The position numbers and the translations under genes are program-made. The notes under the pieces are model-generated. The model saw nothing but the letters and a program-made list of their open reading frames with translations, was not told the origin of the DNA and searched no databases. Below, piece by piece: positions 6,891-33,890 of a DNA stretch of 35,972 nt. Each line of letters begins with the position of its first letter. Position 1 is the first letter of the stretch. Origin of the DNA: a virus (taxonomy: Duplodnaviria; Caudoviricetes); IMG/VR virus record IMGVR_UViG_3300021082_000069, positions 1-35,972 of that record, one strand, 5' to 3'.

Positions 6891-7940
6891 TTATTGGAGT
6901 TGGTATTGGCGGAGGAGGAGGGTGTGGGCCTGGCGGAAGGCCTGGCACCAGGTTAGGTCTTTGTTTTTGCCGTGCTTGATTTCGCTGGCGAGCTTGAGTT
7001 GTTTTTCGACGCTGCGGAAATGGCCGTGCTGGGTGCAGACGCGTTCACAGAGGTCGCGGAGTTCATCGAGTTCGCCGTTGACGTCCTGGGCGATGCTCTT
7101 GATCTGGTGGGTGATTAGTTTGCGGCGGTCTTTCTCGCCGGGCTTGACGGCCCAGTGGATGCCGACGCGGCTGAAGCGCTGGGGGTCGTCTTCGAGTTTC
7201 AGAACGAGTTCGTCGGTGCCGATCAAACAAATCGGGATGTTGGTCTCGTCGTAGAGGTCGAAGAGGAGGTGGAGCGCGGGGCGGGTGAGTTTGTGGGCGT
7301 CGTCAACGATGAGGGGGCGGTCGGATCCGCGGAGGCTGGTGACGAGGAAGCTGGCGCGTTTGGTCTGGGGATCGTAGCCGACGTGAGGGATGACGTCCCA
7401 GAGGGCGGACTGGAGGCTATTCTTATCACTCGACCAGGCGCGGACGTGGAAGAGCATGGCGAGGACATTGGATTTTTGGATGAGCTCGATGCCGCGGGTT
7501 TTGCCTTCGCCGGATTCGGCGACGATGACGCCGAGGTCGTTGGTTTTGCGGATGTATTCGAAGGCGGTGAGCATTTGGTCGACGATGTCGCAGGGGGCGG
7601 TCTCGATGCCGGAGAGGCGGCGGCGTTCTTCGTTGCGGAGGAAGTCATCAGCGCTGCGTTCGAGGCGGGCGATATCACCATCATAGATGCAGCCGCGCTC
7701 GTTGAGGTATTGGGATACGACGGAGACGTTGACGCCGAATTTGGTGGCGAATTTGGCGTTGGACCAGGGGGAGCCGTCCTGGTCGCGCATATCGATGAGT
7801 TTTTGCCGGAGGAGGGTGTTACAGGCGAAGATGCGGCGCTCGCGGCCGCCCTCGGTTTTGAAGGTGCCGAGGATTTCAGCCTTTTTGTTGGTGACTGGGG
7901 TTTCGTCGCGGTCGGTGGGGGGGAGGGATAGGGTATGCAT
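6891..7940 (-). CDS. MuB-like AAA+ transposition ATPase with N-terminal HTH
   Basis: HTH (FATKFGVNVSVVSQYL), Walker A AESGEGKT, Walker B LIVDDAHKL, LIGT and SRVG motifs; directly downstream of the transposase. Confidence 0.92.
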   Translation of the reverse strand: MHTLSLPPTDRDETPVTNKKAEILGTFKTEGGRERRIFACNTLLRQKLIDMRDQDGSPWSNAKFATKFGVNVSVVSQYLNERGCIYDGDIARLERSADDFLRNEERRRLSGIETAPCDIVDQMLTAFEYIRKTNDLGVIVAESGEGKTRGIELIQKSNVLAMLFHVRAWSSDKNSLQSALWDVIPHVGYDPQTKRASFLVTSLRGSDRPLIVDDAHKLTRPALHLLFDLYDETNIPICLIGTDELVLKLEDDPQRFSRVGIHWAVKPGEKDRRKLITHQIKSIAQDVNGELDELRDLCERVCTQHGHFRSVEKQLKLASEIKHGKNKDLTWCQAFRQAHTLLLRQYQLQ

Positions 7941-7945
7941 TTTGT

Positions 7946-8004
7946 TTGGAATGTTGGAATGTTGGAATGGTGGATTGGTGGAATGGTGGAATGGTGGAAT
8001 GATG
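7946..8004 (+). repeat. Octamer tract TGGAATG(T/G/A) x7
   Basis: ttggaatgttggaatgttggaatggtggattggtggaatggtggaatggtggaatgatgg between the transposase and MuB genes. Confidence 0.9.
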
Positions 8005-8016
8005 GTTCGGGGGGGG

Positions 8017-10041
8017 TTATAACAGGGATTTCATTAGGGATTCGCGGGCGGTTTCGGAGGTTAAGGCTCGTTGTTTTTCGGCGCGGCGTTTATCGGGTGT
8101 GGGGCCGAGGAGAGCGGAGTTGGCGGCGGCGCGGTCGGTGGCGGCCTGGGTGATGGGGGCGGCGAGGCGGCGGGCTTCGCTGATGAGGGGTGACAGGGCC
8201 TGGGTCTTGCGCTTGAAGGCTTGCTGGAGCGCGGCGGGATCGTCGCGGCGGACGCGGCCGTAGTAGGGGGCTACGCCGGCGAATTGGTTATCGGCGGTGA
8301 AGAGGTAGCAAATGTGAGGAGCCAGGGGGTTGACGCGGACGAGCCATTTTTCATCGTTGCGCAGGGGGTCCTGGACGCCGCGGCCGTTGCGCCGGGTGAG
8401 GCCGAAGACGAGGGGTTCATCGGGGTCAACTTCCGGGACGCCGATTTCGATTTGGTTGTTTTTAACGGGTCGTTCAACGCCGGGTAAATCGTCCATTAAC
8501 AGGGCCGCTACCGCGAGGGGGAGTTTGACGAGTTCGGATTTTCCGGCATCGAAGACTTCGCGGGGGGAGAGGGAGCGTTCGCGTTTGAGGAGGGAGTCGG
8601 GCTGGGGCGTGGAGAGGACGGCGGCGATGGCGTCGCGTTCGGCGGGTTCGAAGTCGAGGAGGGCGGCAGCAGGGCGCCAGGGCATTTGGCGGTTGAGGCG
8701 CCATTCGGTGGTGAGGTGACCGCATTCGCGCCAGGCTTCGAGGGAGTGATCGGTGCGGCAGTTGATGACTTCGGTGATGGCGTCGAGGCGGAAGATGGCT
8801 TCGTGGTGGCTGAGCATGCCGAGGCGGAGGAGTTCGGCTTTCTCCGGATCCATGCAGCGGGCGGCTTTGATGAGGGCGAGGTTGTCTTTTTCGAGACCGG
8901 GCAGGCCTTCCGGCTGGTTGAGGCGGGAGTTGCTGCCGGTCTGGCCGGGGAATTCCAGGAGGTCATCGGTGCGGTTGCGCAGGAGGTTGAACCAGGATTC
9001 GAGGGGGGCTTTCCAGCGGGGGTTGCCGCCACCCGGCCCGGTGAAGAGGGCGGAGATTCCCGGCCCGCCGCCGGAGGGGCCATCCTGGACGGTGATGGCG
9101 TCGCCGAGGGTGGTGGCGAGGATTTCGCGTTCGCGTTTGCGTACGGTGGCGGTGGATTTTTCGCAGATGATGGTGGTGCCGGAGGGGCGGTAGCCGCTGG
9201 TGGTGAGGAAGGAGACGAGGAGCCAGATCATTTCCTGTTCGCGGAGGCGTTCGACGATTTTGGTTTCCTGGTCTTTGAGGGCAGGCTTGTAGCCGCGGGC
9301 GATGTTGCAGCCGCTGAAGAGGTCGAGGACGTGGAAGGCGAGAAGGCGACAGGACTGGCCGTAGGCGAGGACTTTGAAGTCATTCCAGGAGTCGTCGAGG
9401 ATATAGTATTGGCCGACCTGGGCGCCGCAGCGGGTGGTGGGGATTTGGGGCCCGAGGTTGGAGGCGGATTTGGGGCCGATCTGGATGAGTTTGCGGGCGT
9501 AGTTAGAGACGCGTTTATTGAGGGCGGATTTGAGGTTTGAGTAGGTCCAACCAAAGGGCAGGTCGTCATCGGAGAGGGAGTCCGGCTCGGGGCACTGGGG
9601 GTAGCCGGGGATGGCGGCGGACTCATCGCCAGCGCGCCAGCGGCGGTACTGAAGGATGAGTTTCTGGTAGGCAGGCATGAATTTATCGCGCTGGCGCCGG
9701 CCCCAGAGCTGGGCGAGGTAATCGAGGAAGGCATCAGGGAGGCCGAAGGGGGTGGAGTGGTTTTGCCAGAGGGCGCCGGCGATGGAGGCATCGACGAGGG
9801 TGCGCCAGTTGCCATCGTTTTGGACAAAATCGGTGTAGAGGCGGTGGAGTGATTTGGCGGACCAACCGCGTTCGCCCGGATACATGGCGGCAATGGTCTG
9901 GCAGCCGGACCAGGTGGAGGGGGAGTTTTCGATCAGGCGCATGGCGCGGAGGCGGCGCTGGACGAGTTTACGGGCGCGATCGTTGAGGCCGGCGAAGAGG
10001 TCCAGATCATCGGCTGGGACGGTGGTGGTCAAGGCGGTCAT
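8017..10041 (-). CDS. MuA-like DDE transposase
   Basis: 674 aa; N-terminal HTH (SAKSLHRLY...G...LVD), RNase-H core YILDD...VLDLFSG, GNPRWKAPLESWFN, NCRTDHSLE, LSPREVF; adjacent to MuB. Confidence 0.88.
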   Translation of the reverse strand: MTALTTTVPADDLDLFAGLNDRARKLVQRRLRAMRLIENSPSTWSGCQTIAAMYPGERGWSAKSLHRLYTDFVQNDGNWRTLVDASIAGALWQNHSTPFGLPDAFLDYLAQLWGRRQRDKFMPAYQKLILQYRRWRAGDESAAIPGYPQCPEPDSLSDDDLPFGWTYSNLKSALNKRVSNYARKLIQIGPKSASNLGPQIPTTRCGAQVGQYYILDDSWNDFKVLAYGQSCRLLAFHVLDLFSGCNIARGYKPALKDQETKIVERLREQEMIWLLVSFLTTSGYRPSGTTIICEKSTATVRKREREILATTLGDAITVQDGPSGGGPGISALFTGPGGGNPRWKAPLESWFNLLRNRTDDLLEFPGQTGSNSRLNQPEGLPGLEKDNLALIKAARCMDPEKAELLRLGMLSHHEAIFRLDAITEVINCRTDHSLEAWRECGHLTTEWRLNRQMPWRPAAALLDFEPAERDAIAAVLSTPQPDSLLKRERSLSPREVFDAGKSELVKLPLAVAALLMDDLPGVERPVKNNQIEIGVPEVDPDEPLVFGLTRRNGRGVQDPLRNDEKWLVRVNPLAPHICYLFTADNQFAGVAPYYGRVRRDDPAALQQAFKRKTQALSPLISEARRLAAPITQAATDRAAANSALLGPTPDKRRAEKQRALTSETARESLMKSLL

Positions 10042-10856
10042 GCGCGGGTTGAGAGTGGAGAGTTGAGGGTTGAGGGTTGGGAACCCGCGGGGACCTTTCC
10101 GGAGAGCTGCTTGCGGCGTTTCAGGATTTCCACGATGCGCTGGAGGTAGGCGGCGGCTTCATCGCGGTGTTGAAGGAGGGTGGCGGTGGAGACTTGCTGG
10201 AGGGTGGTGTCATTGGGGCTGGTGAAGAGTTTCATATCGAAGCGGAATTCCTTGAGGAGTTCGTCTTCGTCGCCGACGTCGAGGTTGGCTGCCCGGCCAC
10301 CTTCCCCCGGTTTGCGGCCTCGGGCGCCGGCGCCCTGGGGTTTTTTGGCGAGGCCGAGTTCCCACATGAATTCGAGCTGGGTGCGGCCATCGGTGGCTTT
10401 GTGGAGGGCATCGGTGATGAGTTTGGCATCGTCGTCCTGCCATTGACTGGGAGGGACGGCCATGAGGGAGTGGAGGCGATCGCGGATGGGGAGTTTTTTC
10501 CAGCGGGATTTGATGCCGTCGGCCATTTTCATCCAGTTGCGGGCGGTGTCATGTGAGATGCCGGTTTCTTTGAGGACCATTTCCTGGAAGCCTAACTTCG
10601 ACGAATCGTTCGTCGAAGTTACGGCCGGGGAGGTTCCTAACTTCGACGAATCGTTCGTCGAAGTTGGTTTGAGGTCGGAGCGCTGGCCCTGGCGTGGGCC
10701 GTGGAGGGCGCGGAGTTCTTTGAGGGCGAAGCCGGCCATGACCTGGCAGGCGAGGTCGGCTTGTTTGAAGCGGAGGGACATGCCGGCCCAGTAGCGGACG
10801 GCATCCCAGGTGTTGTTTTCCGCGGGAAAGGCGTAGTTGGTTTTAACGAGTTCCAT
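10038..10856 (-). CDS. DUF3102-like / HTH-containing protein upstream of the transposase
   Basis: GFALKELRALHG, GQRSDL and GISHDTARNWM motifs; ATGA-coupled to the transposase. Confidence 0.6.
   Translation of the reverse strand: MELVKTNYAFPAENNTWDAVRYWAGMSLRFKQADLACQVMAGFALKELRALHGPRQGQRSDLKPTSTNDSSKLGTSPAVTSTNDSSKLGFQEMVLKETGISHDTARNWMKMADGIKSRWKKLPIRDRLHSLMAVPPSQWQDDDAKLITDALHKATDGRTQLEFMWELGLAKKPQGAGARGRKPGEGGRAANLDVGDEDELLKEFRFDMKLFTSPNDTTLQQVSTATLLQHRDEAAAYLQRIVEILKRRKQLSGKVPAGSQPSTLNSPLSTRA
10047..10079 (+). repeat. Heptamer tract GAG(A/G)GTT within the 3' end of a CDS
   Basis: gggttgagagtggagagttgagggttgagggttg encodes QPSTLNSPLST. Confidence 0.8.
10591..10665. repeat. Two identical 30-bp direct repeats, each holding a 27-bp palindrome
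   Basis: AACTTCGACGAA-TCG-TTCGTCGAAGTT at 10594-10620 and 10639-10665, period 45 bp. Confidence 0.95.
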
Positions 10857-10862
10857 AAAGAT

Positions 10863-11069
10863 TCAAGCGGGGCGTTGCGGGAGAATTTCCGGGTTGATGA
10901 GGAGGCCGGGTTTGGCCCGGGATTCGTCGTAGATATCCTGGCCGGTCAAGGTGCGGACGGCGCGGCCGAGGGAGGTGTGGTCTTTGGCAACGACGAAGAC
11001 GTCGGTATCGTCATCGAGGTGAACGAGGGAGACGACGCCGTAAAAGCCTTTGAAGGATTGGGTGATCAT
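10863..11069 (-). CDS. Hypothetical protein
   Basis: 68 aa, ATGA-coupled. Confidence 0.7.
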   Translation of the reverse strand: MITQSFKGFYGVVSLVHLDDDTDVFVVAKDHTSLGRAVRTLTGQDIYDESRAKPGLLINPEILPQRPA

Positions 11070-11590
11070 GCCAGGCGGTTTTGGAAGAAGGCTTTCAGGC
11101 TTTGGATGGTGATGAGGGCGGCGCCCTGGGGGCCGCGGGTGTACGTTGTGCCGGGCATCAGGGAGAGGGCGCCGGCTTCGACCAGGTGCAGGATGTGGGT
11201 GGGGCCGCAGTTCAACAGCAGCCGCAATTGGGAACTGGTTAAATAGGGTTTGTTGGTTTGCAGCATTTGGGCGATGACCTGGTCAAGAGTGCGGGGGTAG
11301 CGGCGGGTTGATGGTTGATGGTTGATGGTTGATGGTTGGGAACCGGCAGTCCGGAGATAATGCGAGATACATTCGGGCCAGATGCGGATGTCTCGGGCCT
11401 GGCCCAGGCCGATGTTCCAGGCGTGGAGGAGATGGCCTTCTTCGATGAGGGCGGTGACGTCATCTTCGGTGTGGCCGGGGAGTTGTTCCCTCGCGCTGGC
11501 GACGGTGGCGAGGACGAGCGTGGTGCGTTCACCGGGCAAAACCAGCTTGCGCTGGGACGGGGGGCGAGGGTCGAGGGTCGAGGGGTTCAT
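11066..11590 (-). CDS. Tandem excisionase/MerR-like winged-HTH protein
   Basis: Two units (EDDVTALIEEGHL...IRIWPECI and LLLNCGPTHILHLVEAGAL...ITIQSLKAFF) joined by a repeat-encoded linker; start re-called to ATG 11590. Confidence 0.65.
   Translation of the reverse strand: MNPSTLDPRPPSQRKLVLPGERTTLVLATVASAREQLPGHTEDDVTALIEEGHLLHAWNIGLGQARDIRIWPECISHYLRTAGSQPSTINHQPSTRRYPRTLDQVIAQMLQTNKPYLTSSQLRLLLNCGPTHILHLVEAGALSLMPGTTYTRGPQGAALITIQSLKAFFQNRLA
11306..11338 (+). repeat. Heptamer tract GGTTGAT x4 inside a CDS linker
   Basis: ggttgatggttgatggttgatggttgatggttg encodes QPSTINHQPST. Confidence 0.9.
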
Positions 11591-11796
11591 TGCCGGGGTA
11601 GGAGTTCTTTGAAGTCGAGTTGGAGGGCCGAGACTTTGGAGATGGCTTGGGCGAGCTCGCGGGCGCGAGCGCGGGAGGCCGAGTCCTGCAGGGTTTCGGC
11701 GAGGGCGAGGTAGACTTCGATTTGTTCGTCGGGAGGGCAGGCTTCGACGTGCCGGGTGGCGAACTGGTTGAGGACGTTGATGGCGGCTAGGACCAT
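11587..11796 (-). CDS. Small helical hypothetical protein
   Basis: 69 aa, overlaps both neighbours, ends QLDFKELL. Confidence 0.7.
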   Translation of the reverse strand: MVLAAINVLNQFATRHVEACPPDEQIEVYLALAETLQDSASRARARELAQAISKVSALQLDFKELLPRQ

Positions 11797-11978
11797 AGTA
11801 CGGCGATGATTTGGGTTCGGACTTTGGGGAACCGATGGGCATGGTGAATGGCCTGGGAAACGGTGGAGCGGGGCCGGGGCGGGGTGAGGTTCCGGCTCAG
11901 ATCAGAAACCGACCAGCCCTTGTGGAGGAGTTCGATTTTTATCTCTTTGGCTGATTTCACTTGCAATTTCTGGCGCAT
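11787..11978 (-). CDS. Ner/Cro-like HTH early regulator
   Basis: EIKIELLHKGWSVSDLSR...RSTVSQAI; first gene of the early operon, divergent from the repressor. Confidence 0.8.
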   Translation of the reverse strand: MRQKLQVKSAKEIKIELLHKGWSVSDLSRNLTPPRPRSTVSQAIHHAHRFPKVRTQIIAVLWS

Positions 11979-12037
11979 CGGATTAAATAATCAAAGTTAA
12001 CGCCTGTTAATATGTTTGAAAATTCAAAGTGAGTCAA
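11979..12037. promoter_or_regulatory. Divergent immunity region with candidate leftward promoter and palindromic operators
   Basis: AT-rich. Minus-strand TTGACT (12037-12032)-17 bp-CATATT (12014-12009). Palindromes GATTA-AA-TAATC 11981-11992, TTAAC-GCCT-GTTAA 11997-12010, TTTGAA-AA-TTCAAA 12015-12028. Confidence 0.6.
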
Positions 12038-12541
12038 CAGGAAAAATTGAAAAAGTTGGAAAAATCAAAAAGGCTGCGGGAGATCCGGAATGAGATGGGT
12101 CTGAACCAGGAGGAGATGGGGAAGAAACTGGATCTGGAAAAGACTTATATTAGCCAACTGGAATGCGCCCGGAAGCCGCTTTCGGATTACATACTGGAGA
12201 AAGCGGAGAATATCCTGCGCGAGTTTAAAAAGTCAAAGGGAGTCAAAGGTGAGGAGATGCGGGAGGGTGTGGGATGGGAGGGGCAAGAGGTGGTGTTGCG
12301 GGGCCGTAGCCACCAGCATTTGGACCAGGTGCTGGATGGGTGCAAGCATGACGCTTACCGGCTGGCGTGGACTTACGAGGAGTTGAAGCGGCGGTTTCCG
12401 CTGAGGGACAAGGCGGAAATCATTGCCGAGGAGTTCGAACAGGAAGCGATCGCTGGCAATGAGCATAAGCGCGGAGACGCTGGATCTTCCGTTCCAAAGC
12501 GCGAATCACACGGTCACATTCTTCCGGATCGAGGGATTTAA
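12029..12541 (+). CDS. XRE-family HTH repressor (c-like)
   Basis: RLREIRNEMGLNQEEMGKKLDLEKTYISQLE; divergent from the Ner-like gene; no S24 peptidase domain visible. Confidence 0.88.
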   Translation: MSQQEKLKKLEKSKRLREIRNEMGLNQEEMGKKLDLEKTYISQLECARKPLSDYILEKAENILREFKKSKGVKGEEMREGVGWEGQEVVLRGRSHQHLDQVLDGCKHDAYRLAWTYEELKRRFPLRDKAEIIAEEFEQEAIAGNEHKRGDAGSSVPKRESHGHILPDRGI

Positions 12542-12812
12542 TATTAGCGAACGCGGGATTGAAGCAGACGCAACAGTCAGGTGTGCAAATTTTTTTATCC
12601 ATACAACAACAGGGCGCGGACTCGGCACATCGAGTCCAGGCACCGCCAGGCGCCTCTCCCACAATGCACCGAGCCGCGCCGATGGGCGCAGGCTCAAGCG
12701 CGCGTGGGAATCTCAAAGCTGGCGGTTTTGGACTTCGCGGCCGGTCTGCAAAAACTAACGGCACATTTTATGCCAAATCACGGATGAGAAGGAAAGAGAA
12801 TTTAAAGCGAAC

Positions 12813-12883
12813 TGGAAGGGTGGAAGGGTGGAAGTATGGAATGGGGGCGGGAGTTTTACAGAAGGCAACGAAGATAACGAAGA
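12813..12883 (+). repeat. Octamer tract TGGAAGGG plus 9-mer tract (AACGAAGNN)
   Basis: tggaagggtggaagggtggaagtatggaatgg, then ttttacagaaggcaacgaagataacgaag. Confidence 0.75.
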
Positions 12884-12895
12884 AAGGATTGAACT

Positions 12896-13306
12896 ATGGG
12901 TGGACTTGAGCTTGTGATTTGGATTGTGGTGGGGGGATTGGTGGGGGTTTTGTGCGGGACGGCGCGGGGACGGGTTAACGAAGGGTTTTTGTTTGGAGCT
13001 CTCCTGGGGCCCATCGGGTGGCTGTTGATTTTGGTCGGGCCGGATAAGAGGCCGAAGTGTTCGGAGTGCGGCGGGGTGGTGGTTCCGGGGGCGCGGAAGT
13101 GCATGCACTGCGGGAGTGAGATCGGGGGGTATGTGGGGAGTTCGACGGTGCCAGGGGTGGCGGTGAAATGTCCGGCTTGCGGGGAGATGGGTTGGGTGAA
13201 GGAGGTGAGCGAGGATTCCAACATTGAGTGCCCGGTGTGCCGGCGGACGTTTTCCGGGGTGCGGGGGATGGAGGAGGCGGAGGCGGGAAAGTTTAACAGG
13301 AGGTAA
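12896..13306 (+). CDS. Membrane protein with double zinc ribbons (lysogen-expressed accessory candidate)
   Basis: Two N-terminal TM segments (GFLFGALLGPIGWLLI) and four CxxC pairs; co-oriented with the repressor. Confidence 0.8.
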   Translation: MGGLELVIWIVVGGLVGVLCGTARGRVNEGFLFGALLGPIGWLLILVGPDKRPKCSECGGVVVPGARKCMHCGSEIGGYVGSSTVPGVAVKCPACGEMGWVKEVSEDSNIECPVCRRTFSGVRGMEEAEAGKFNRR

Positions 13307-13390
13307 CAGAGGGAACGGAGAATTCGGAATTGGGAATTGGGAATTGGGAATTTGAAAGCTGGAAGACAGGATGGACAGGATGGACAGGAT
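13293..13390 (+). repeat. Composite tract: 9-mers (AACAGAGGN), heptamers GGGAATT x4, 9-mers GACAGGATG x3
   Basis: ttaacaggaggtaacagagggaacggag / aattcggaattgggaattgggaattgggaattt / gacaggatggacaggatggacaggat. Confidence 0.85.
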
Positions 13391-13396
13391 TGGGAA

Positions 13397-13419
13397 GCAC
13401 TCCTTACGTCGTGCCCTAC
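13397..13419 (-). repeat. REP-like element (GTAG plus imperfect hairpin)
   Basis: Minus strand GTAGG-GCAC-GACGTAAGGA-GTGC. Confidence 0.45.
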
Positions 13420-13464
13420 AGGGATGGGCTTGACAGGATGGGTATGATTTGATTTAGTTGGGGC

Positions 13465-13491
13465 ACCCCAGCCATTCGGTTGGGGTTTTTT
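13465..13491 (+). terminator. Rho-independent terminator closing the repressor-side transcript
   Basis: ACCCCAGCC-ATTC-GGTTGGGGT then a T-run; a second GC hairpin lies at 13496-13518. Confidence 0.7.
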
Positions 13492-13659
13492 GTAAGCGCG
13501 GGGTGCGATGCCCCGCGCATCTTTGTTGAGAGTTAAGGGTTGAGAGTTGAGAGTCTGATGGTTCTTCGGACGGTTTTCTTTCGGGTTTCTTCGGGGGTTA
13601 AAGGGGTATTACCACGGTGGGAATGAGGGGTTTCTTGGGTTGTGGTTTCATGCTGGGGC

Positions 13660-13857
13660 ATGAAAGCAATCGAGTTCCTGCGCGGGAAAAAAACCTACTT
13701 CACGGTGGCGATCGGCGTGCTTTACGTCGGGGGCTGCTATCTCGGGTTCTATGAGTTCGACGAGAAGGTGCTGGTGGTTCTCGGGCTGGGATCGGTGGCG
13801 TTTCTGAGGGCGGCGATGCCCAAGAAATCTGAGGATGTAAAACCGATGAACCAATAA
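13660..13857 (+). CDS. Holin-like small membrane protein
   Basis: 65 aa, FLRGKKTY followed by two TM segments and a charged tail; first late gene; start re-called to ATG 13660. Confidence 0.6.
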   Translation: MKAIEFLRGKKTYFTVAIGVLYVGGCYLGFYEFDEKVLVVLGLGSVAFLRAAMPKKSEDVKPMNQ

Positions 13858-13867
13858 ACGGTTAACC

Positions 13868-13901
13868 GGGGCGGCCCTTTCGGGGGCCGCTCCTTTCTTT
13901 T
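13868..13901 (+). terminator. Rho-independent terminator-like hairpin inside the late operon
   Basis: GGGGCGGCCCT-TTCG-GGGGCCGCTCC followed by TTTCTTTT. Confidence 0.75.
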
Positions 13902-13908
13902 CAACATT

Positions 13909-14364
13909 ATGAAATCATTCAAGCGGATCGGATTGATGGCGGTGGTGGCGGTGGTGGCGAGCCTGGTGGTGGTCGGGTGTTCTTCCACGAAGCTGGAATC
14001 GGGCGGGGCTTACGCGCCGGTGGATGTTTCGGGGAACGCGATCGTGAAGCCGGATCCGGCGTTCTACGTGATCGACGCGGCCTACGCGGTGGCTTACGCG
14101 ACGGTGGACGGGGTGTTCAAGTTCGAGCAGGACAACCGGCTGTTTCTCTGGCAGGTGTCGCCGAACTTCAAGCAGGCGCTGGATAAGATCCGGCCGGAGG
14201 CGGTGAAGGTGAGGGATGATTACGCGCGGTGCCGCCTGGCGTATAAGGCGAACCCGGTGCCGGCGAATCTGACGCAGTTGCAGACGGCACTGGCGCGGGT
14301 GCAGCAGTTGACGGCGACGGCCGCGGCGCTGCTGCCAACAGCGACAACGAAGACGGGGAACTGA
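13909..14364 (+). CDS. Lipoprotein (lysis-region, spanin-like position)
   Basis: MKSFKR, hydrophobic core and VVG-C lipobox; helical mature part. Confidence 0.8.
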   Translation: MKSFKRIGLMAVVAVVASLVVVGCSSTKLESGGAYAPVDVSGNAIVKPDPAFYVIDAAYAVAYATVDGVFKFEQDNRLFLWQVSPNFKQALDKIRPEAVKVRDDYARCRLAYKANPVPANLTQLQTALARVQQLTATAAALLPTATTKTGN

Positions 14365-14371
14365 ACTGGGT

Positions 14372-14399
14372 TTAACAGAAGCAAACGAAGGAAACGAAG
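14372..14399 (+). repeat. 9-mer tract AACGAAG(G/C)A x3
   Basis: ttaacagaagcaaacgaaggaaacgaag. Confidence 0.75.
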
Positions 14400-14401
14400 A
14401 T

Positions 14402-14638
14402 ATGAACGCAGCAACTTTAGCTTTGGTTTTGCAGGGGCTGACGGCCCTGGTGGCAGCGGCGCCGCAGGTGGAAGCCCTGGTGAAGCAGGTGAAGGATTTA
14501 ATCTCCGCGCTGTTTACGGCGAAGCAGATCACGAAGGCGCAGCAGGACGCGATGATGGCACAGGTGGACGCGATCGTGGCGCTGAGCCAGGCGGGGATCG
14601 TGCCGAGTCATTGGGCGGTGCAGCCGGATCCGCAGTGA
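14402..14638 (+). CDS. Small amphipathic helical protein
   Basis: 78 aa, hydrophobic N-terminus. Confidence 0.75.
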   Translation: MNAATLALVLQGLTALVAAAPQVEALVKQVKDLISALFTAKQITKAQQDAMMAQVDAIVALSQAGIVPSHWAVQPDPQ

Positions 14639-14643
14639 TTCGA

Positions 14644-14673
14644 GACGGACGCCTCGGCGAGGCGTCCCTACCT
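14644..14673 (-). repeat. GTAG-type REP-like palindrome, copy 1
   Basis: Minus strand GTAG-GGACGCCTC-GCC-GAGGCGTCC; 30 bp identical to 23425-23454. Confidence 0.85.
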
Positions 14674-14681
14674 TGTTACGT

Positions 14682-15388: not shown

Positions 15389-15392
15389 TGAT

Positions 15393-15448
15393 GAAATCCG
15401 AAAACCGAATCCCGAAATCCGAAAGAAGTCCGAAGGCCGAAAGCCGAA
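15393..15448 (+). repeat. Heptamer element GAAA(T/A/G)CC with GAAAGAAGTCC core
   Basis: gaaatccgaaaaccgaatcccgaaatccgaaagaagtccgaaggccgaaagccgaa; near-copies at 17481-17536 and 31810-31840. Confidence 0.85.
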
Positions 15449-15470
15449 CTCCTTCCGGAGGGGCAACGGC

Positions 15471-24728: not shown

Positions 24729-24729
24729 A

Positions 24730-25524: not shown

Positions 25525-25586
25525 GGACAAAGCAGAAAGTTGAAAGTAGAAAGCAGAAATTTAACTACAAAACGAAAGACTGAATT

Positions 25587-26513: not shown

Positions 26514-26597
26514 GGGGCGAGGGGCGAGGGGCGCTGACGAGGGGAGAGGGTCGAGGGGCGAGGGTCGGAATGGTGGAATGGTGGAATGATGGAATAA
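26512..26597 (+). repeat. GAGGG(G/T)C heptamers plus TGGAATGG octamers
   Basis: Fills the intergenic gap after the tail tube gene. Confidence 0.88.
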
Positions 26598-26602
26598 CGA
26601 TT

Positions 26603-26791
26603 ATGAAAGAGAAGATCACGGTGGTTGAAGGGCTCGTTAACGAGCTTTGCAAGGAGGAGAAACAGACGCCGTATTTGCATGCGGCGATCGGCGGGCTGCG
26701 GACGTTCCTGGAGAAGGCGCCCCAGCATGTGACGGAGCTGCAGAAGGCGGAAGCTGCGAAGGCGACCAAGGCCCAGGCTAAGGCGACGTGA
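26603..26791 (+). CDS. Small hypothetical protein
   Basis: 62 aa from ATG 26603. Confidence 0.65.
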   Translation: MKEKITVVEGLVNELCKEEKQTPYLHAAIGGLRTFLEKAPQHVTELQKAEAAKATKAQAKAT

Positions 26792-27180
26792 AGGCCGAGT
26801 GGACACCTGCAGGCGGCGGGCTGGCTACGCTGGGGGATGACTCGGTGAAGCACTCGATGGTGCTGGAACAGATCGGGGGGGCGTCGGTTGAGCAAGTGGC
26901 GGGGTTGTTCCGCGCGGCAGCGGTGAAGCGATTCCCCAGGGGAAATATCTCCGGGGAATGCATTTTCACGTCGGCTAAGAGTCACGCGACGCAGGCGGCG
27001 GCGATGGCGTTTTTTAAGGCCGAGTACGCGCGGTTGAACGGGAAGGGAAGCCTGGTGCTGACGGAGGGGGCGGTGACTTGGACGATGGCGGACGCGATGC
27101 TGACGGCGGTGCAGGTGGTGCAGGTGGTGGGGCTGCGGTTTTGGATTAGGTACCGGTTTGGGATAGCCACTATTAGTTGA
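26788..27180 (+). CDS. Hypothetical tail-region protein
   Basis: 130 aa, GTGA-coupled. Confidence 0.75.
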   Translation: MKAEWTPAGGGLATLGDDSVKHSMVLEQIGGASVEQVAGLFRAAAVKRFPRGNISGECIFTSAKSHATQAAAMAFFKAEYARLNGKGSLVLTEGAVTWTMADAMLTAVQVVQVVGLRFWIRYRFGIATIS

Positions 27181-27263
27181 TGGTTGATGGTTGATGGTTG
27201 ATGGCGGGGACGGGGATTGGGGATTGAGAATTGCAAATTGAGAATTTGAAAACTGAAATCTGA
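27174..27263 (+). repeat. GGTTGAT x4 followed by GGGGATT/GAGAATT heptamers
   Basis: tagttgatggttgatggttgatggttgatgg...ggggattggggattgagaattgcaaattgagaatttgaaaactgaaatctga. Confidence 0.88.
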
Positions 27264-30155
27264 ATGAAGGGATTGATTTTAATTTTGGCGATGGCGGTGG
27301 CTACGGGCGCGCCGGCGGCGACGGTGGTGTTTCCGGTTTCGAAGATGACTGGGGGGGCGGGGAATCGGCGGGTGACGGTGACGATGAAGGCGCCGCCGGT
27401 GGTTAATGGGACGAACCTGGTGGCGTCCGCGCCGGTGGTTTTGACGCCGACAAATGGGGTGGCGCAGGTGGACCTGGTGCTGGGGGATTATTATTTCCAG
27501 ATCGAGGGGGTTAATCGGTCGGTGCCGTTCCGGGTGAACACGAATGGGGTGTTCGGGATTGTGGAGCTGACGGATCCGAACTCGCTGACGTGGCCGCAGA
27601 GTAATGCGGTATTTTATACGCGGAGCGAGGTGGACGCTTTGATTGCGGCTGCACCTGGTGGGACGAATTCAGGGACGGCGGTGGCGGTAGGACACGGGCT
27701 GGTGGCAGATACCAACAACGGGTTGGTGACGGCCTCGATTTCGGCGGATGTGGTGACGAATAACCAGTTGCAGGCGTCGTTTGGGATCGTGTCGGCGGCG
27801 GAGGCGCACTTTGGGACGGCGGCGCTTATTTCGGGGGATGGGTCGACGCTTAATAATATGACGGTGACTGGGGGGGTGGTGAATTTGCCGTCGGCGACGG
27901 GGGCTTTGGTGGTGGGAGGAACGAATGTGGTGAGCAGTGCCGGGAGCAAGGTGAACAACGTTGGAATGACGAATGGGGTGGTGAACTTGCCGGAGGTAGG
28001 GGCTCTGGTGGTGGGGGGGACGAATGTTTTGAGCAGTGCCGGGAGCAAGGTGAACAACGTTGGGTTTACCAATGGCAGCGTCCAATTACCCACTGGATCG
28101 TCCTTAAAACTCGGGGGAACTGATATCCGCGAGACCTATATCGCGACCAGCACTTTTTATGGTCGCAGTGTAACGAGCACCGCCGCGAACGCAGGCAAAA
28201 TGGATTCTGATTCGACGACAAACATCATCATCACGGCTGGGTCTGATAAGGGCCTCATCACGCTAAAAAGCAACGTGGTCGTAACGGGCACGATCACCGG
28301 GAGCGGGGCGGGGTTGACGAATTTGCCGAGGGCGGATTACACGAATCACGGCGGGCTGACGGATACCAATTTCCCGATGGTGGAGAAGCTTCCTAATGTT
28401 CGGCGCAGCCCACCGGATTGGGCGCGAGTGCCGTTTGGTGGGTTCAACACGTGGTATCAGCAGAATAGCACGCAATATCCGCCGAGCGCGTTTCAGTCGC
28501 CGACGAATAAATGGGTCTGGGTGACCAACCAGGTGAACTGGGCGATCAAGAATAACGTGCAGGATTTCTACAAGCTGATCGTCATCGACGACACCTGGCA
28601 GAATACGAATCGGCTGGCGAATGGGGATCTGTGGTGGGACCCGGCGCAGTTTCCGAATGATGGGAACAACGGATGGAGCGGGATGACGAATGTGATCAAC
28701 TGGCTACACTCACTCGGGTTCAAATTCGGGCTGTATACGGAGCTGGACCCTATTTGCGCGGCGGACATTGATTCGACGGGACCGCGTCTCCCGGCGCCCG
28801 GCAGCTACGGTTATTACGAGCAGGACGCGAAGCTGTGGTCATCGTGGGGGGTGGATTACATCAAGTTCGACATGCAGCTTGACGCAGAGACCTTCAAGCC
28901 TGAGTCGGGCCTGACACGGTTCGTGAATGCCTGGGACCGCACGGGCCGGCCGCTCTATATCATGGGGAGCGTGTCTCCGAAGGGGCACGAGGGATGGAAT
29001 GTGGACTTGTATAATGAGCCGCGGACGCCTTACTCGCCGGATTGGCCGGGGTATACGACTAACGATTACCACTTCCACCTGCAGAAGCACCTTTGGTGGG
29101 GGCGGGATCTGCAGTCGTTTGTGAGGCCTGGGATGTTCGCGTCTTACGACATTTTGCCGGAGAATATGGCGGATGGCGGGAATAGCGGGAATGCGTACAA
29201 CGGCAGCACGCCGGTGAGTTTCGAGCTGCAGCGGGCGATGTTGACGATGGGGGCGATGATGGTGTCGCCCAGGATCTACACTCGCGGGGCGGTGGACGCG
29301 CTGCCGAATGGGCTATGGCTGCAGACGAATCGGAGCGTGTTGAAGATCCTGACGGACCCGGCGTGTATCGGAAGCCAGATGGTGACGAATTCGCACGCGA
29401 CGAACGCAACGGTGTGGTGGCGGCCGCTGGGGAGTGCGACAGGGCCGGAATACGCGGTGGCGCTGTATAATTATCAGTCGAATGTGACGGCGGCGACGAC
29501 GATCTATTGCACATGGACGAACCTGGGGATCGCGAGCAACACGGTGATGAGGGTGGAGAACGCGTGGAGCAACGAGGTGTTTCTGGCCACTAATGTGTTC
29601 AGCAAAAGTGTGGCGTGCCGGGGAGCGGAGCTTTACCGATTGACGCCGGTGAGCGGGGGGACGGTTTTGTCTGACACGCCGGCGGTGTTGAAGAACACGG
29701 TGGAGATCGTGCGGGCCAACGAATGGGACATCTCGACGATGTGCACCCGGCTGAGCTATTACACTCAATCGCCGGCGCCGATCGCTGGGCAGAGCGGGAT
29801 TTCGGGGGCAGGCAATTCAGGGTATTATGGGTTCGGTTTTGACATACCGTCGTGGGCGACGAATGTGAGTGGGACGTTTTACCTGCAGGTGGTGAGCGCG
29901 TCGACCAATGTGACGGCGAATCTGGATGCCTGGACTACTTTTAATAATTCGTTTTCGTCTTCCTCCTCTTACTTCTCAGGGCAATACACGGCTTCGAAGG
30001 TGATCACGGCGACGAATGGGGGGCTGAATCCGGTGACGTTTTCGATTCCGCTGCGGCGCGAGGCGTGTGTGAACAAGCGGGCTAATTTCACGCTGGTGAC
30101 TCCGGGGGCGGAGACGATCTACGTGGTGGGGCCGGCGCAGGTGACATACCAATGA
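27264..30155 (+). CDS. Tail-fibre/spike-like protein with signal peptide and GH27 (alpha-galactosidase-family) catalytic domain
   Basis: MKGLILILAMAVATGAPA-A signal; FYTRSEVDALI fibre motif; GH27 series PFGGFNTW, VIDDTW, DPAQFP, LHSLGFKFGLY, DAKLWSSWGVDYIKFD, TGRPL, VWWRPL...AVALYN. Confidence 0.88.
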   Translation: MKGLILILAMAVATGAPAATVVFPVSKMTGGAGNRRVTVTMKAPPVVNGTNLVASAPVVLTPTNGVAQVDLVLGDYYFQIEGVNRSVPFRVNTNGVFGIVELTDPNSLTWPQSNAVFYTRSEVDALIAAAPGGTNSGTAVAVGHGLVADTNNGLVTASISADVVTNNQLQASFGIVSAAEAHFGTAALISGDGSTLNNMTVTGGVVNLPSATGALVVGGTNVVSSAGSKVNNVGMTNGVVNLPEVGALVVGGTNVLSSAGSKVNNVGFTNGSVQLPTGSSLKLGGTDIRETYIATSTFYGRSVTSTAANAGKMDSDSTTNIIITAGSDKGLITLKSNVVVTGTITGSGAGLTNLPRADYTNHGGLTDTNFPMVEKLPNVRRSPPDWARVPFGGFNTWYQQNSTQYPPSAFQSPTNKWVWVTNQVNWAIKNNVQDFYKLIVIDDTWQNTNRLANGDLWWDPAQFPNDGNNGWSGMTNVINWLHSLGFKFGLYTELDPICAADIDSTGPRLPAPGSYGYYEQDAKLWSSWGVDYIKFDMQLDAETFKPESGLTRFVNAWDRTGRPLYIMGSVSPKGHEGWNVDLYNEPRTPYSPDWPGYTTNDYHFHLQKHLWWGRDLQSFVRPGMFASYDILPENMADGGNSGNAYNGSTPVSFELQRAMLTMGAMMVSPRIYTRGAVDALPNGLWLQTNRSVLKILTDPACIGSQMVTNSHATNATVWWRPLGSATGPEYAVALYNYQSNVTAATTIYCTWTNLGIASNTVMRVENAWSNEVFLATNVFSKSVACRGAELYRLTPVSGGTVLSDTPAVLKNTVEIVRANEWDISTMCTRLSYYTQSPAPIAGQSGISGAGNSGYYGFGFDIPSWATNVSGTFYLQVVSASTNVTANLDAWTTFNNSFSSSSSYFSGQYTASKVITATNGGLNPVTFSIPLRREACVNKRANFTLVTPGAETIYVVGPAQVTYQ
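27876..28076 (+). repeat. Internal 33-34-codon duplication in the fibre shaft
   Basis: VVNLP...GALVVGGTNV.SSAGSKVNNVG.TNG twice; 34-bp identical core at 27931-27964 and 28030-28063. Confidence 0.9.
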
Positions 30156-30181
30156 GTCCGATGGCGCAGAACTGAGCGATC

Positions 30182-31810
30182 ATGGCTGATTTCAAGATCA
30201 ATATTATCACGGACGCGAGTTCCGCGGTGTCTGGCGGGAAGCAGGCGGCGGAGGCTTTGAAGGGGGTAGCGAACGAGGCGGAACGGTACCAGACGAAGCT
30301 GCGGGAGATGGCGATCACCGAGAAGTCGGCGGCCGAGGAGCGGCGGCGGGCGGCGGATGACTCGGAGCGGTACGCGGCGACGCTGGAAAAGATGGCGGTG
30401 GCGCAAGGCAAGAGCCGGGAGATCAGCCAGGAGGATGCATCACTGCTGGAGAAATCGGCCGCGCTGCAAGAGAAGCTGGCGGAGCGGAAGCGGCTGACGA
30501 CAGAAGCGGATGAGGAGATCGCTGCCGGTGTTAAGAAGGTCAGCAAGGAGGAGATCGAAGCGGCCGGGATTTCGATGGAGGCGGATAAGGCTACGCTGAC
30601 CCGGAAGGCAGAAATTCAGCAGGCGCTTTCGAAGTTGTCCCGGGAGTTTCCAGTTGCGGCCTCCGCGGCGAAGGCACTTTTCTCGGGAATTGGCGGGGCG
30701 GCGATGCTGGCGGCTTGGGGGTTCAAGAAGCTGCAGGGAGATATCGAGAATTTAATGGCGGCCCTGGAGCCAAGCCAGTGGGCGACGTATGGGTCGGTGG
30801 TGGCGGCCCGGAAGGCGGATTTCGAGGCGGCGGCGACAGGGGCGGCGGGTTTTGCGCGGGAGCTGGAGCAGACAAAGCTGATGGCGGAGAGCGCGAGTGC
30901 GGCGAGCGAAAAGCTGGTGACGGTGTTCAAGGCCCGGCAGAGCGCTCAGGAGAAGGTGGATGCGGCCGCCAAGGATCTGGAGCTGGCACGGGCGGGAGGG
31001 ATTAAGGACCCGGTGCAGCGAGCGCAGGCGGTGCTGGAGATCGAGAACCGGTATGCAGAGCGGTCGCGCCGGCGGCAGGAGGAGACGGCAAATTTCGAGC
31101 GGAATGAACAGCACCGGAAGATCGGCAATGAGCGGATCGCGGTGGAGATGTTGGATAAGCAGTTGGAGGGGGCGCGGGAGAAGCAGAAGGGGCTGAAGAG
31201 CGAGGGGGAGGTGACGGAGGAGATCAAGGTGGCGCGGGACCGGCTGAACACGATCAACAACGAGTATATCACGAAGCAGGAGCGGTTCGAGGCGTTGAAG
31301 GGCAAGGGTTGGGCGTTCCGGAGCACTCCTGAGCAGATGGAGATGGAGCAGCTCGGCGGGCAACTGGATTCGTTATTTGCGCAGCGCCAGGCGCAGCAGG
31401 GGATCGTGGGAAGCCTGGAGGCAGGGGCACCTGGAGCGATCGGGAAGTGGCGCTCGAGCGCGGAGCATATCCAGATGCTGGAGGGGATGAGGAGGGGAGC
31501 TGGGGAGCGGCTGGGCGGGATGATATCGAACCTGCCGACGAGTGAAGCTTTGTTTGGGATCGAGAGCGGGGCGAGGTCGGCGGTGGGGAATCTTGAGGAT
31601 AGGTCGCGGCTGCAGACGGCGGCGAACCAGGCGGCGGCGAACGCCAGCCAGGCGGAGGCTGCGACGCAGGCGGCGATCGAGAAGGGGGCCGGGGCCTCGA
31701 TGACGACTTTGAATTTGATGATCTCTTTTGCGCAACTGCAGGCGGATATAGAGCGGCGGATGAAGCAGTTGGAATCGCGGAACACGGTGGGAGTGCGCGG
31801 GGCGCAATAG
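30182..31810 (+). CDS. Tape measure protein, putative
   Basis: 542 aa Ala/Glu/Gln-rich helical, MADFKINIITDA start, one hydrophobic Gly/Ala segment. Confidence 0.75.
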   Translation: MADFKINIITDASSAVSGGKQAAEALKGVANEAERYQTKLREMAITEKSAAEERRRAADDSERYAATLEKMAVAQGKSREISQEDASLLEKSAALQEKLAERKRLTTEADEEIAAGVKKVSKEEIEAAGISMEADKATLTRKAEIQQALSKLSREFPVAASAAKALFSGIGGAAMLAAWGFKKLQGDIENLMAALEPSQWATYGSVVAARKADFEAAATGAAGFARELEQTKLMAESASAASEKLVTVFKARQSAQEKVDAAAKDLELARAGGIKDPVQRAQAVLEIENRYAERSRRRQEETANFERNEQHRKIGNERIAVEMLDKQLEGAREKQKGLKSEGEVTEEIKVARDRLNTINNEYITKQERFEALKGKGWAFRSTPEQMEMEQLGGQLDSLFAQRQAQQGIVGSLEAGAPGAIGKWRSSAEHIQMLEGMRRGAGERLGGMISNLPTSEALFGIESGARSAVGNLEDRSRLQTAANQAAANASQAEAATQAAIEKGAGASMTTLNLMISFAQLQADIERRMKQLESRNTVGVRGAQ

Positions 31811-31844
31811 AAATCCGAATTCCGAAAACCGAATCCCGAATTAA

Positions 31845-33890
31845 ATGGCTTTTACACTGGAATATAACTCGGTTGAGAGGAGCTTCGAGGATTGGGGGGT
31901 GGAGGAGTCGAAGGCGACTTTAACGCTAGCGAACCAGGCTCCGGATGTGTTTACGGTGGAGGTGCCAGGGGCGCTGGTGACGGCGGACCCGATCTGGCCA
32001 TTCGAGGCGGAGGTGATCATTCGGAAGGGTCGAGCTGGGGCGGGCACGGCCTGGGCGGGAGGCTCGGTGATTTTCCAGGGGAAGCAGGTGAAGCATTTGG
32101 GGTCGGGGACTGCGGGTTACGAGGGGGTGGCTTACGTTTTCCAGGGGCCGTGGTATGACCTGGAGGAGACGCCGTATCAGCAGACGATTTATAGCGTGAA
32201 CCCGGCGGCGGAGGATCCGAGTCTGCCGGCGGGGTGGTTTAGCTGGAAGGTTTCGGAGGTAGTGTTGTTCCAGTTGGTGACGGGTCCCGGGACGTGGGTG
32301 GCGCGGAATAACGGTCAGCAGCTCGGGGATATCCTGCAGCATGTGCTGGATGAGTATGCCGCACAAGGGATGACGGCGCCTTACCAGGTGGGGACGATCG
32401 CGCCGGCGACAACGCTGTATACTTACCAGGTGCGGGATTTGAAGGCGGCGGAGGCGATCCGGATTTGCCTGCGGTGCGAGCCTGACGCGACGGTGTGGTT
32501 TGATTATTCGACGGTGCCGCCGACGGTGAATGTGTCGAAACGGGCGGGGGCGACAGCCGTGGCGGTGGCGGTGGCGGACCTGGTGAATCATGAGGAGATC
32601 CACCTGGCGGAGCGGCCGGACCTGCAGGCGCGGAGCGTGGTGCTGTATTTCAAGCAGACGCACGATTTCAACGGGCAATCGCTGGTGACGAATACGAAGC
32701 AGAAGTACGGCCCGAACGGGCTGAATCACGCGAGCGATCCGGAGGGCGGCCGGCGGGTCCTGGTGATGACGATCGATCTGCAGGGAGGATCGAGGACGGA
32801 TGTGTTCGGGGAGTTGAAGGTGTTCGCGGCCGCGCCGACAACGCGGGCGTTTTGGAAGCGGTATTATCCAGAGTACCAGAGTTCGAAGATCCGGAATTTC
32901 TCGGCGGGGAATTTGCGGGTGGTGGATGATTTAGGGGCGGCGGTGAGCCTGGGGACTTACCCGAATGTGTGCGAGGACGGGAGCAATATTGCGAGCTGGA
33001 TGAAGCTGGGGGGCACGACGCCGGTGGTGGGGAGGCAGGTGACGATTTCGGTGGACGTGAGTTTCACGCAGTGGGACGTGGAGGGCACCGGCGGGTCTCC
33101 GGAGACGGCCACGAACGGGGTGCTGAAGGATCAAATCGTGATGAAGCAGCTCTCGACGCGGGTGACTTTGACGAATGGTACGACGGGGAATTATAGCGCG
33201 ATCGCGAGTGAGTCCGCGGGCGAGGATATCCCCACGGGGCTGGCGCAGACGGTTTACGATAGCCTGGCGCAATTGCAGTATGAGGGGTCGGTGGCGCTGG
33301 TGGAGGAGGAATGCGGGACGGCGGTGACGCTGGCGAATGTGCTGAATTTGACGGGAGGCAAGACAGCCTGGTCGACGATGCGGGCGCAGATTCAGCAGGT
33401 GAAGTTTTCGTATGGATCCGGGCGCACGGAGATCACGGTGGGGCCGGCGAAGCACCTGGGCCCAGGGGATCTGACGGAGTTATTCCTGATCAACCGGAAT
33501 CGGCGGGTGTTTTATGATCCGAGCACGCAGGCGACGGCGAGGTCGAGCCACGGCGGAGGATCGGTGAGTTTGCCAAAGACTTTAGCGAAGGAGAATACAA
33601 CGGCCGGGCTGGATAGCCTTTCGATTGGGTCGATCATCAAGAATTTGGGTACCGGAAACTCGGTGGTGGTGCAGCACTCGGCGGAGGCGAAGTCGATTGT
33701 GATGCATGAAGTGGTCAATGCGACGGGGGTGAGGGATGCGACGAAGGCGGCCATGGAGTTGCTGTTGGCGGATCTGCCGGCGGGCGAGGTGTTGAAGATC
33801 CGGAAGCGGACTTGGAAGGATCACGAGCACGATTGCGCGGTATGGGGTTGCTACGTGGTGTGCTCGGAACCGAAAGCGGAGCCAGTCTGA
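31845..33890 (+). CDS. Tail tip / baseplate hub-like protein
   Basis: 681 aa beta-rich directly after the TMP; IFQG...WYDLE and PDATVWFDYS patterns. Confidence 0.65.
   Translation: MAFTLEYNSVERSFEDWGVEESKATLTLANQAPDVFTVEVPGALVTADPIWPFEAEVIIRKGRAGAGTAWAGGSVIFQGKQVKHLGSGTAGYEGVAYVFQGPWYDLEETPYQQTIYSVNPAAEDPSLPAGWFSWKVSEVVLFQLVTGPGTWVARNNGQQLGDILQHVLDEYAAQGMTAPYQVGTIAPATTLYTYQVRDLKAAEAIRICLRCEPDATVWFDYSTVPPTVNVSKRAGATAVAVAVADLVNHEEIHLAERPDLQARSVVLYFKQTHDFNGQSLVTNTKQKYGPNGLNHASDPEGGRRVLVMTIDLQGGSRTDVFGELKVFAAAPTTRAFWKRYYPEYQSSKIRNFSAGNLRVVDDLGAAVSLGTYPNVCEDGSNIASWMKLGGTTPVVGRQVTISVDVSFTQWDVEGTGGSPETATNGVLKDQIVMKQLSTRVTLTNGTTGNYSAIASESAGEDIPTGLAQTVYDSLAQLQYEGSVALVEEECGTAVTLANVLNLTGGKTAWSTMRAQIQQVKFSYGSGRTEITVGPAKHLGPGDLTELFLINRNRRVFYDPSTQATARSSHGGGSVSLPKTLAKENTTAGLDSLSIGSIIKNLGTGNSVVVQHSAEAKSIVMHEVVNATGVRDATKAAMELLLADLPAGEVLKIRKRTWKDHEHDCAVWGCYVVCSEPKAEPV

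Follow-up and report, generated by a model that had tools for sequence, protein, structure and literature searches.

The question raised by the 35,972-base viral record IMGVR_UViG_3300021082_000069, analysed here at its full length as the window, is how a Mu-like transposable phage came to carry an excess of G over C along one strand of its entire genome, such that its leftward and rightward genes use mirror-image sets of synonymous codons. A reading made from the letters alone (hereafter the sequence-only reading) had reasoned that an element inserting in either orientation cannot take such an asymmetry from host replichores, and had called the bias intrinsic to the phage. We find it likely that only the fixed polarity is the phage's own and that the chemistry of the bias is that of the host. 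Host loci and relatives are named below by locus (L) or genome (G) labels.

A one-strand G excess over the whole phage

The genes on which the bias was measured lie in two divergent arms, with the early arm leftward as in the phages B3 and BcepMu:

189..11978, minus strand: early arm, whose leftward genes prefer C-ending codons (coding-strand fourfold C 0.76)
6891..7940, minus strand: MuB-like AAA+ transposition protein (phrog_296, E 2.8e-33; AAA_22), with a fourfold skew of 0.94, the genome maximum
8017..10041, minus strand: MuA-like transposase (phrog_310, E 4.2e-12), with C 335 : G 27 at fourfold sites of the coding strand
12029..12541, plus strand: repressor at the divergence point
12896..35633, plus strand: late arm encoding terminase, a portal-MuF fusion, protease, capsid and tail; its rightward genes prefer G-ending codons (fourfold G 0.73)

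Over the whole window the plus strand has 14002 G and 7567 C, a GC skew of +0.298, with an AT skew of -0.037. The hand counts of the sequence-only reading (36 G and 12 C at 8101-8160; 28 G and 11 C at 16981-17040) proved exact, and its statement that the plus strand is G-rich in both arms is borne out by skews of +0.293 in the left and +0.298 in the right. The skew extends beyond its range of 6891-33890 to the whole element. None of 355 overlapping 500-bp windows has a negative skew, and the largest drop in the cumulative G-C curve is at most 18. The sign does not change at the repressor, as it would have if the original claim had been mistaken, both arms having the same sign.

Codon and fourfold figures for the window derive from 36 hand-curated genes, in which the reported flip of synonymous codons between the arms is plain. 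Leftward genes favor GCC (0.82), CGC (0.77), ACC (0.84), CTC (0.68) and CCC (0.63), and rightward genes GCG (0.71), CGG (0.69), ACG (0.70), GTG (0.83) and GGG (0.61). The twofold sites of Glu and Lys flip likewise, being A-ending in leftward and G-ending in rightward genes (GAA 0.80 vs 0.16; AAA 0.79 vs 0.12). Read on the plus strand, fourfold sites have A.082, C.107, G.730 and T.081 in rightward genes (n=3628) and A.062, C.107, G.761 and T.070 in leftward genes (n=1561), i.e. fourfold skews of +0.74 and +0.75. The per-gene fourfold skew is positive in 36/36 genes (range 0.39-0.94), with no positional gradient among them (Spearman 0.18, p=0.30), and the 2660 bases of non-ORF DNA have a skew of +0.40. 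The excess thus behaves as a strand asymmetry, being strongest at silent sites, present also outside genes, and tracking the DNA strand rather than the coding strand: decomposition yields a strand component S of +0.73 and a coding component T of -0.01. The T excess (keto skew) of the classic cases is absent from the fourfold sites, with a T/A log-odds of +0.05. Other loci were scored with our own ORF scorer, which may admit false ORFs and returns +0.72/+0.74 on the window against the curated +0.74/+0.75.

The window lies outside the normal range of Mu-like phages, as had been proposed: the skew is +0.07 in Mu, 0.00 in B3, +0.01 in BcepMu, 0.00 in vB_PR2c (33.4 of 36.3 kb) and +0.15 in BalMu-1 (fourfold +0.08). 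Mu and B3/BcepMu-type phages share with the window MuA and MuB, TG...CA ends, variable host flanks and a size of about 36 kb, and B3 and BcepMu also share the divergent layout of early and late genes; yet the strand component is -0.01 in B3 and +0.01 in BcepMu, and the fourfold skew of Mu +0.08, against +0.73 in the window. The latter further differs from Mu-type phages in its head module, in which a PF04860 portal is joined to MuF and accompanied by a PF05065 capsid, and in that neither GemA nor Mor was detected.

A complete transposable phage at variable sites

The window is a complete Mu-like transposable phage with variable host flanks:

1..24, plus strand: left host flank, unbroken within a host gene (L169:277-300)
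25..35952, plus strand: complete Mu-like transposable phage, with TG at 25-26 and CA at 35951-35952; plus strand G-rich throughout
33..50, plus strand: left terminal inverted repeat (predicted transposase site), 18 nt, 94%, 8 bases inside the TG at 25
35927..35944, minus strand: right terminal inverted repeat, 8 bases inside the CA at 35951-35952
35953..35972, plus strand: right host flank

The TG...CA termini with inverted transposase-site repeats are of the Mu type. In run X1, contig starts fall at 25 and contig stops at 35953, as variable flanks would predict; together with the L169 match this shows variable host DNA at both ends. The right flank has no copy of the last 5 bases of the left flank and does not continue L169, and therefore probably stems from another insertion site. 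Contig depth, which is flat by construction, is an even 13-17x over the phage in runs X1 and X2, which may be the source of the window. A chimeric assembly was rejected: an apparent coverage hole at 13.4-18 kb is an edge effect, single contigs span the region and depth is even. Assembled contigs of both runs are near-identical to the window, with one full-depth difference at position 26341, where the window has A and both runs have C, either a strain difference or an error in the window.

The MuB-type ATPase adjoins the transposase and matches the MuB-type genes of SuMu, BalMu-1 and others. The transposase retains invariant acidic residues (D216/D217, D240, E348) in four aligned sequences, as in DDE enzymes, with no Pfam or NCBIfam match. 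GemA and Mor are marker genes of Mu-like phages; the ORFs in the corresponding places (189-710 and 2122-2757) gave no match in PHROG, Pfam or NCBIfam, and both have homologues in relatives.

The likely host order and its skewed chromosome blocks

A search of 241 million metagenome records gives one exact match to the 24-base left flank, lying in a host gene that is not interrupted (L169). The topoisomerase gene of L169 is 82% identical to a genome from the order of G001, the one order searched. G001 is titled Verrucomicrobia subdivision 3, which we take to be the order Limisphaerales. Judging from this match, the host is likely a member of the Limisphaerales; its species is not among the 401 genomes of the order searched (best 82%). 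L169 is weakly skewed (+0.03; fourfold -0.06/+0.17), and hence the present site is not the source of the phage skew, in keeping with what had been claimed.

For flank comparisons we used seven prophages with clear phage skew, leaving out the weakly skewed G427, G085, G256 and G206 as well as G361, G112, G042, G043 and G047. Phage and flank have opposite signs in three of the seven (G060, about -0.3 vs +0.13 to +0.18; G231, about +0.1 vs -0.20; G334, +0.07 vs -0.13) and the same sign in the other four (the window, G039, G383 and G005), where the phage is 2-10 times more strongly skewed.

Chromosomes of the same order carry a comparable signature. Across those sampled, the median 4-kb absolute skew runs from 0.01 (G271) to 0.14 (G060), and G231 reaches 0.30. 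In G231, 16 of 139 genes have an absolute fourfold skew of 0.7 or more, ordinary housekeeping genes among them (0.76-0.83; single genes 0.96). In such blocks the bias is present in genes on both strands, with G raised and C lowered relative to A and T, and T/A near zero: the G/C log-odds are +1.85 in the window, +1.06 in G231 and +0.92 in G060, and the T/A log-odds +0.05, -0.12 and -0.08, respectively. In the window and host blocks alike the bias shows no dependence on codon box or next base. A 26-value profile of the window correlates with those of the G231 and G060 blocks at r = 0.94 and 0.93, figures that mostly reflect three broad site classes. Because Limisphaerales blocks share this G/C-only signature, in G231 at a strength similar to that of the window, the bias is likely produced by the host replication machinery, the phage contributing only its fixed polarity. 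The claim of a phage-intrinsic skew is thus upheld as to polarity, and likely not as to chemistry.

The sampled chromosomes of this order are themselves built of G/C-skewed blocks whose sign reverses over distances of kilobases to tens of kilobases, with single genes to -0.96 (G231:C59 190-236 kb; C25 200-240 kb, L178-L180 and L230-L231; G347:C1, L194-L205), and do not display a two-replichore pattern. On the 5.92-Mb contig of G347, 12 samples alternate between about -0.23 and +0.24.

Relatives share, lack or reverse the polarity

Relatives found in genomes through TerL are mostly prophages of Verrucomicrobiota and Kiritimatiellota; in viral contigs a MuB query found no relatives and a tail tube query one. 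For comparison we chose 28 relatives with genes on both strands, taking S of +0.2 or more, or -0.2 or less, as cut-offs. Nine share the polarity of the window (G060 +0.60, L001 +0.43, G008 +0.36, G449 +0.35, G450 +0.32, and four at 0.21-0.27), two, both in Kiritimatiellota hosts, are reversed, and 17 are near zero, from which we conclude that polarity is labile. The strand component in the family spans about -0.35 to +0.73, with a mirror fragment at -0.81; many relatives also have a coding-strand C preference (T about -0.1 to -0.2). Strong skew values are scattered over a quick MuA tree (37 rows, no bootstrap).

The window and L001 have the same polarity, although their fourfold identity is 0.57 against an expected 0.50 (n=1127) and their TerL identity 82%. 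One polarity at near-saturated fourfold sites argues that the bias has been maintained rather than inherited once; the skew is sustained over long times within lineages and labile between them. The closest pairs of relatives are 99.8-100% identical and other tested pairs 68-85% alike, none of them polarised as to the direction of base change.

Several further observations concern the distribution of skew among relatives. Capsid-related clusters, some apparently resident in chromosomes, are skewed in either sign (-0.66 to +0.67). The G005 terminase small/large pairs at L063 (9198-11821) and L064 (9491-11830) have TerL split by insertions and lie in nearly unskewed host DNA; they are coding-strand C-rich (-0.62, -0.75), the reverse of the polarity of the intact-looking G005 late module L327. 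In the mosaic phages G448 (L286-L288), G008/G014 (L106, L003, L124) and L010, modules differ in the size or sign of skew, as if swapped between lineages with different histories.

A proposed one-way replicative transposition and its rivals

The explanation that we favor, with confidence only a little above an even balance, is that replicative transposition proceeding in one direction records the leading/lagging bias of the host as a G-for-C excess over the whole phage. The starting points are the observations that this complete Mu-like phage is flanked by DNA of different sites, and that blocks in same-order hosts carry the G-up, C-down, A=T signature broken into stretches of alternating sign. 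According to the Mu literature, PriA, DnaB and Pol III of the host copy Mu (PMC3325207, PMC3334882), and the restart primosome of the host, with Pol III, carries Mu-type copying from one end to the other (PMC3325207, PMC3334882, PMC10052514); Mu-like phages such as this one would be copied end to end in like manner. If the host machinery mutates the two strands unequally and copies the phage from the same end in most rounds, the phage would amount to one unbroken replichore, whose silent sites could reach the full equilibrium of the bias. Provided that forks start mostly at one end, one strand would always be leading whatever the orientation of insertion, and the divergent gene layout would turn the one-strand bias into mirror-image codon usage. 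The account given of phage Ab30 describes no insertion-orientation bias at a hotspot (PMC5977238). On the general rule that G enrichment marks the leading strand (PMC7858055, which also describes one-signed skew in unidirectional replicons), forks on the phage would start at the left end (position 25) and move with the late and against the early genes. The preferred end would differ between lineages and could weaken or flip, and the chromosome would show the same bias diluted, likely by inversions; rearrangement is reported to be negatively linked to strand bias (PMC4613354). The uniform skew of arms, non-ORF DNA and repeats, without a gradient, counts for one-way replication, as does the nearly unskewed target locus. 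A left-end preference belongs to the general picture of Mu replication; the literature searched gave no confirmation of it.

Several points weigh against this explanation. One-way forks and their direction are read from composition, and the replicative origin of the host blocks is itself something that we infer. Mu's own skew is only +0.07, 17 of the 28 relatives have S near zero, and the nine same-polarity and two reversed relatives are non-independent lineages. The late-arm fragment L015 is a full mirror image, with a skew of -0.31 and the codon pattern of the window's early arm; the nearest MuA rows to the window, at -0.85, are L025 at -0.10 and L279 at -0.15; and L280, which keeps the gene order of the window at a MuA identity of 44%, has a reversed early arm (+0.55). 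The resemblance of phage and host holds at the level of base classes, since 32-value fine contexts do not correlate (r -0.01 and 0.20). A skew switch at dnaA is absent in G060 and G347, and rpoB clusters are uninformative on the leading strand. The sampled genomes nearest to the host are weakly skewed (median 4-kb absolute skew 0.05 in G374, 0.01 in G271), and a strong bias in the window's own host, known from one 10.3-kb locus, is an assumption.

Among alternatives, the skew might have been acquired passively, by amelioration during long residence in one orientation within a strongly skewed host block, the phage being mobile again now. We regard this as improbable, though as the likeliest of the alternatives: the G231 blocks reach the needed size in their most skewed genes, relatives of either sign and of every magnitude lie scattered over the MuA tree, and the capsid-related clusters that are in part apparently chromosome-resident have either sign. 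The phage, however, is intact and at several sites now, L001 and the window have held one polarity through near-saturation of silent sites, all 36 genes are skewed, accessory ones included, the median gene of the window (0.72) exceeds every sampled host median (at most 0.34), and host blocks flip sign over short distances. Alternatively, if the phage always went in with one orientation relative to the host fork, as with TnsE of Tn7, the same strand would be leading during lysogenic replication. Fork-oriented transposition has a described precedent (PMC5027513), four of the seven prophages share the sign of their flanks, and the phage encodes a predicted DnaA-type DNA-binding domain; yet G060, G231 and G334, with clearly skewed flanks, oppose the local sign (which may not show present fork direction), Mu is described as not inserting near forks (PMC3325207) and Ab30 as inserting both ways (PMC5977238), and we give this reading little credence.

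Somewhat less still goes to a phage-encoded mutator, i.e. a minimal PolX or other early protein that would write G on one strand during gap filling. The African swine fever virus Pol X is prone to G:G mispairs, and the stand-alone 174-aa PolX of the phage is weakly similar to structures of that enzyme (E 2e-4 to 4e-4). The fourfold pattern also speaks for it: in a model constrained to the GC content of the window with A near T, free transitions with strand-symmetric transversion rates within 10-fold reach a skew of at most 0.19 (30-fold, 0.57), so that transversions must be asymmetric or very unequal. Nevertheless, PolX homologues occur with weak same-sign (G024, S +0.26), reversed (G039 -0.29; the G448 early arm) and near-zero skew (G427 -0.06), the query found no PolX in the incomplete G008 record (S +0.36), and host housekeeping genes carry the signature without the phage. 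PolX was rejected as the cause on the ground that its presence does not track skew among relatives. Cytosine deamination alone fits poorly, there being no T excess, no gradient and a modelled skew of at most 0.19; a context-specific deaminase was rejected, the bias being independent of codon box and next base. It is very improbable that selection on one strand, favoring G-quadruplexes or acting against intrastrand pairing, is the cause. Canonical G4 motifs number 20 on the plus strand and 0 on the minus strand, and a G/C-balanced shuffle is about 3 kcal/mol more stable per 150 nt than a composition-keeping one. The count of 20, though, matches the shuffle expectation of 21.6 +/- 4.2; 150-nt windows of the actual sequence fold a little more, and not less, than their shuffles (-20.8 vs -19.4, n=40), which leaves the avoidance of intrastrand pairing that the sequence-only reading had listed among candidate causes unsupported; and the bias is flat across contexts and absent or reversed in close relatives. 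Mutation linked to transcription, or codon selection, we consider hardly credible: the coding-strand C preference of many relatives speaks for it, and the two divergent arms, with nearly the same plus-strand composition and a T of -0.01 beside an S of +0.73, rule out a transcription-linked bias in the window.

Returning to one-way replicative transposition, a fuller version may be offered as possible rather than probable. In Mu-like phages of Verrucomicrobiota, polarity might be a lineage-specific, switchable property set by which end loads the replisome, and strict enough to bring silent sites to equilibrium. It would then expose a G-versus-C-only bias of Limisphaerales that needs an asymmetric transversion (C-to-G or T-to-G) and not deamination alone, and the same bias would leave host chromosomes divided into many blocks of opposing skew and not into two replichores.

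Relation to known systems and implications

Borrelia and Chlamydia have codon usage specific to the leading and lagging strands, and in animal mitochondrial DNA strand bias is driven by deamination through single-strand exposure. Deamination-driven bias resembles that of the window in the loss of C and gain of G on one strand and in asymmetric transitions; the window differs in that T is not in excess (fourfold T/A about 1) and the bias does not change with position. Strand-specific codon usage is described from bacterial chromosomes and a plasmid: in the chromosome and plasmid 3 of Lawsonia intracellularis, as in the window, synonymous codons split by strand rather than function, into G-ending and C-ending (PMC2671203). 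The Lawsonia bias, however, is one of G+T versus C+A, in AT-rich intracellular bacteria with two replichores (PMC2671203), whereas that of the window is one of G versus C only, in a 36-kb transposing phage of 60% GC with neither origin nor switch point. Unidirectional Pseudoalteromonas chromids likewise have a one-signed GC skew from end to end of the replicon, interpreted as replication in one direction by the machinery of the host; they are circular, with a fixed origin and a measured direction (PMC7858055), whereas the window is a linear mobile element whose direction is deduced. The phylum of the host order is scored as ordinary for strand bias in the data of PMC4613354. In the literature searched, which takes in few subscription papers, we found no earlier description of a comparable skew, whether for transposable phages or for the Limisphaerales.

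If the favored explanation is true, base composition would read out which phage end is copied from, and how strictly, across uncultured prophages, making the direction of phage replication readable from sequence alone. Given the range of S in the family, comparative tests of what determines the preferred end in Mu-type replication become possible. That host blocks share the G/C-only signature suggests that a GC-rich bacterial order has a strand-asymmetric mutation process not yet described. The skew of such phages also distorts host prediction, binning and gene calling that rely on codon usage or composition.

Repeats and other features

The repeats of the window, the hairpins among which we take to be REP-like, and two further early genes are as follows:

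2253..31842, plus strand: span of short 7-8-mer tandem arrays between genes
13391..13424, minus strand: REP-like GTAG hairpin 1, read from the sequence; contigs break here
14647..14672, minus strand: REP-like GTAG hairpin 2, from an inverted-repeat scan
23428..23453, minus strand: REP-like GTAG hairpin 3, from an inverted-repeat scan
1095..1619, minus strand: stand-alone 174-aa PolX-family polymerase (palm and thumb), with weak African swine fever virus Pol X similarity
2748..3149, minus strand: DnaA C-terminal helix-turn-helix protein, a separate early gene

The sequence-only reading had noted that the polarity of the skew matches that of the repeats, and within the window this is so: 27 of 28 arrays have more G than C on the plus strand and all three hairpins read GTAG on the minus strand. 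L001 has two GTAG hairpins in the same orientation as the window, as is the lone hairpin of the mirror-skewed L015, so that hairpin polarity may not follow skew (n=1). The approximately 28 arrays lie at gene boundaries and are of the GTTGATG, GTTGAGA, GGAATGGT and GAGGGGC types; sampled host DNA has them at a far lower density (0-3 per 20 kb), and other contigs of the same runs have them too.

The PolX has the size of the African swine fever virus enzyme, with homologues in G024/G025, G039, G427 and G448, and genes similar to that for the DnaA C-terminal domain occur in the G060, G085 and G206 prophages. Upstream of the transposase, a self-complementary 28-nt unit at 10594-10665 is duplicated in frame in a 272-aa ORF (TSTNDSSKL twice). 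In the late arm, the portal fused to a MuF domain (18438-20684) is followed by a capsid gene (21523-22998) whose product is about 70% identical to those of many short portal-protease-capsid-adaptor clusters (L249-L277). Farther along, a 963-aa tail-region protein (27264-30155, plus strand) has alpha-galactosidase (GH27-like) domains, by which it is likely a receptor-binding depolymerase.

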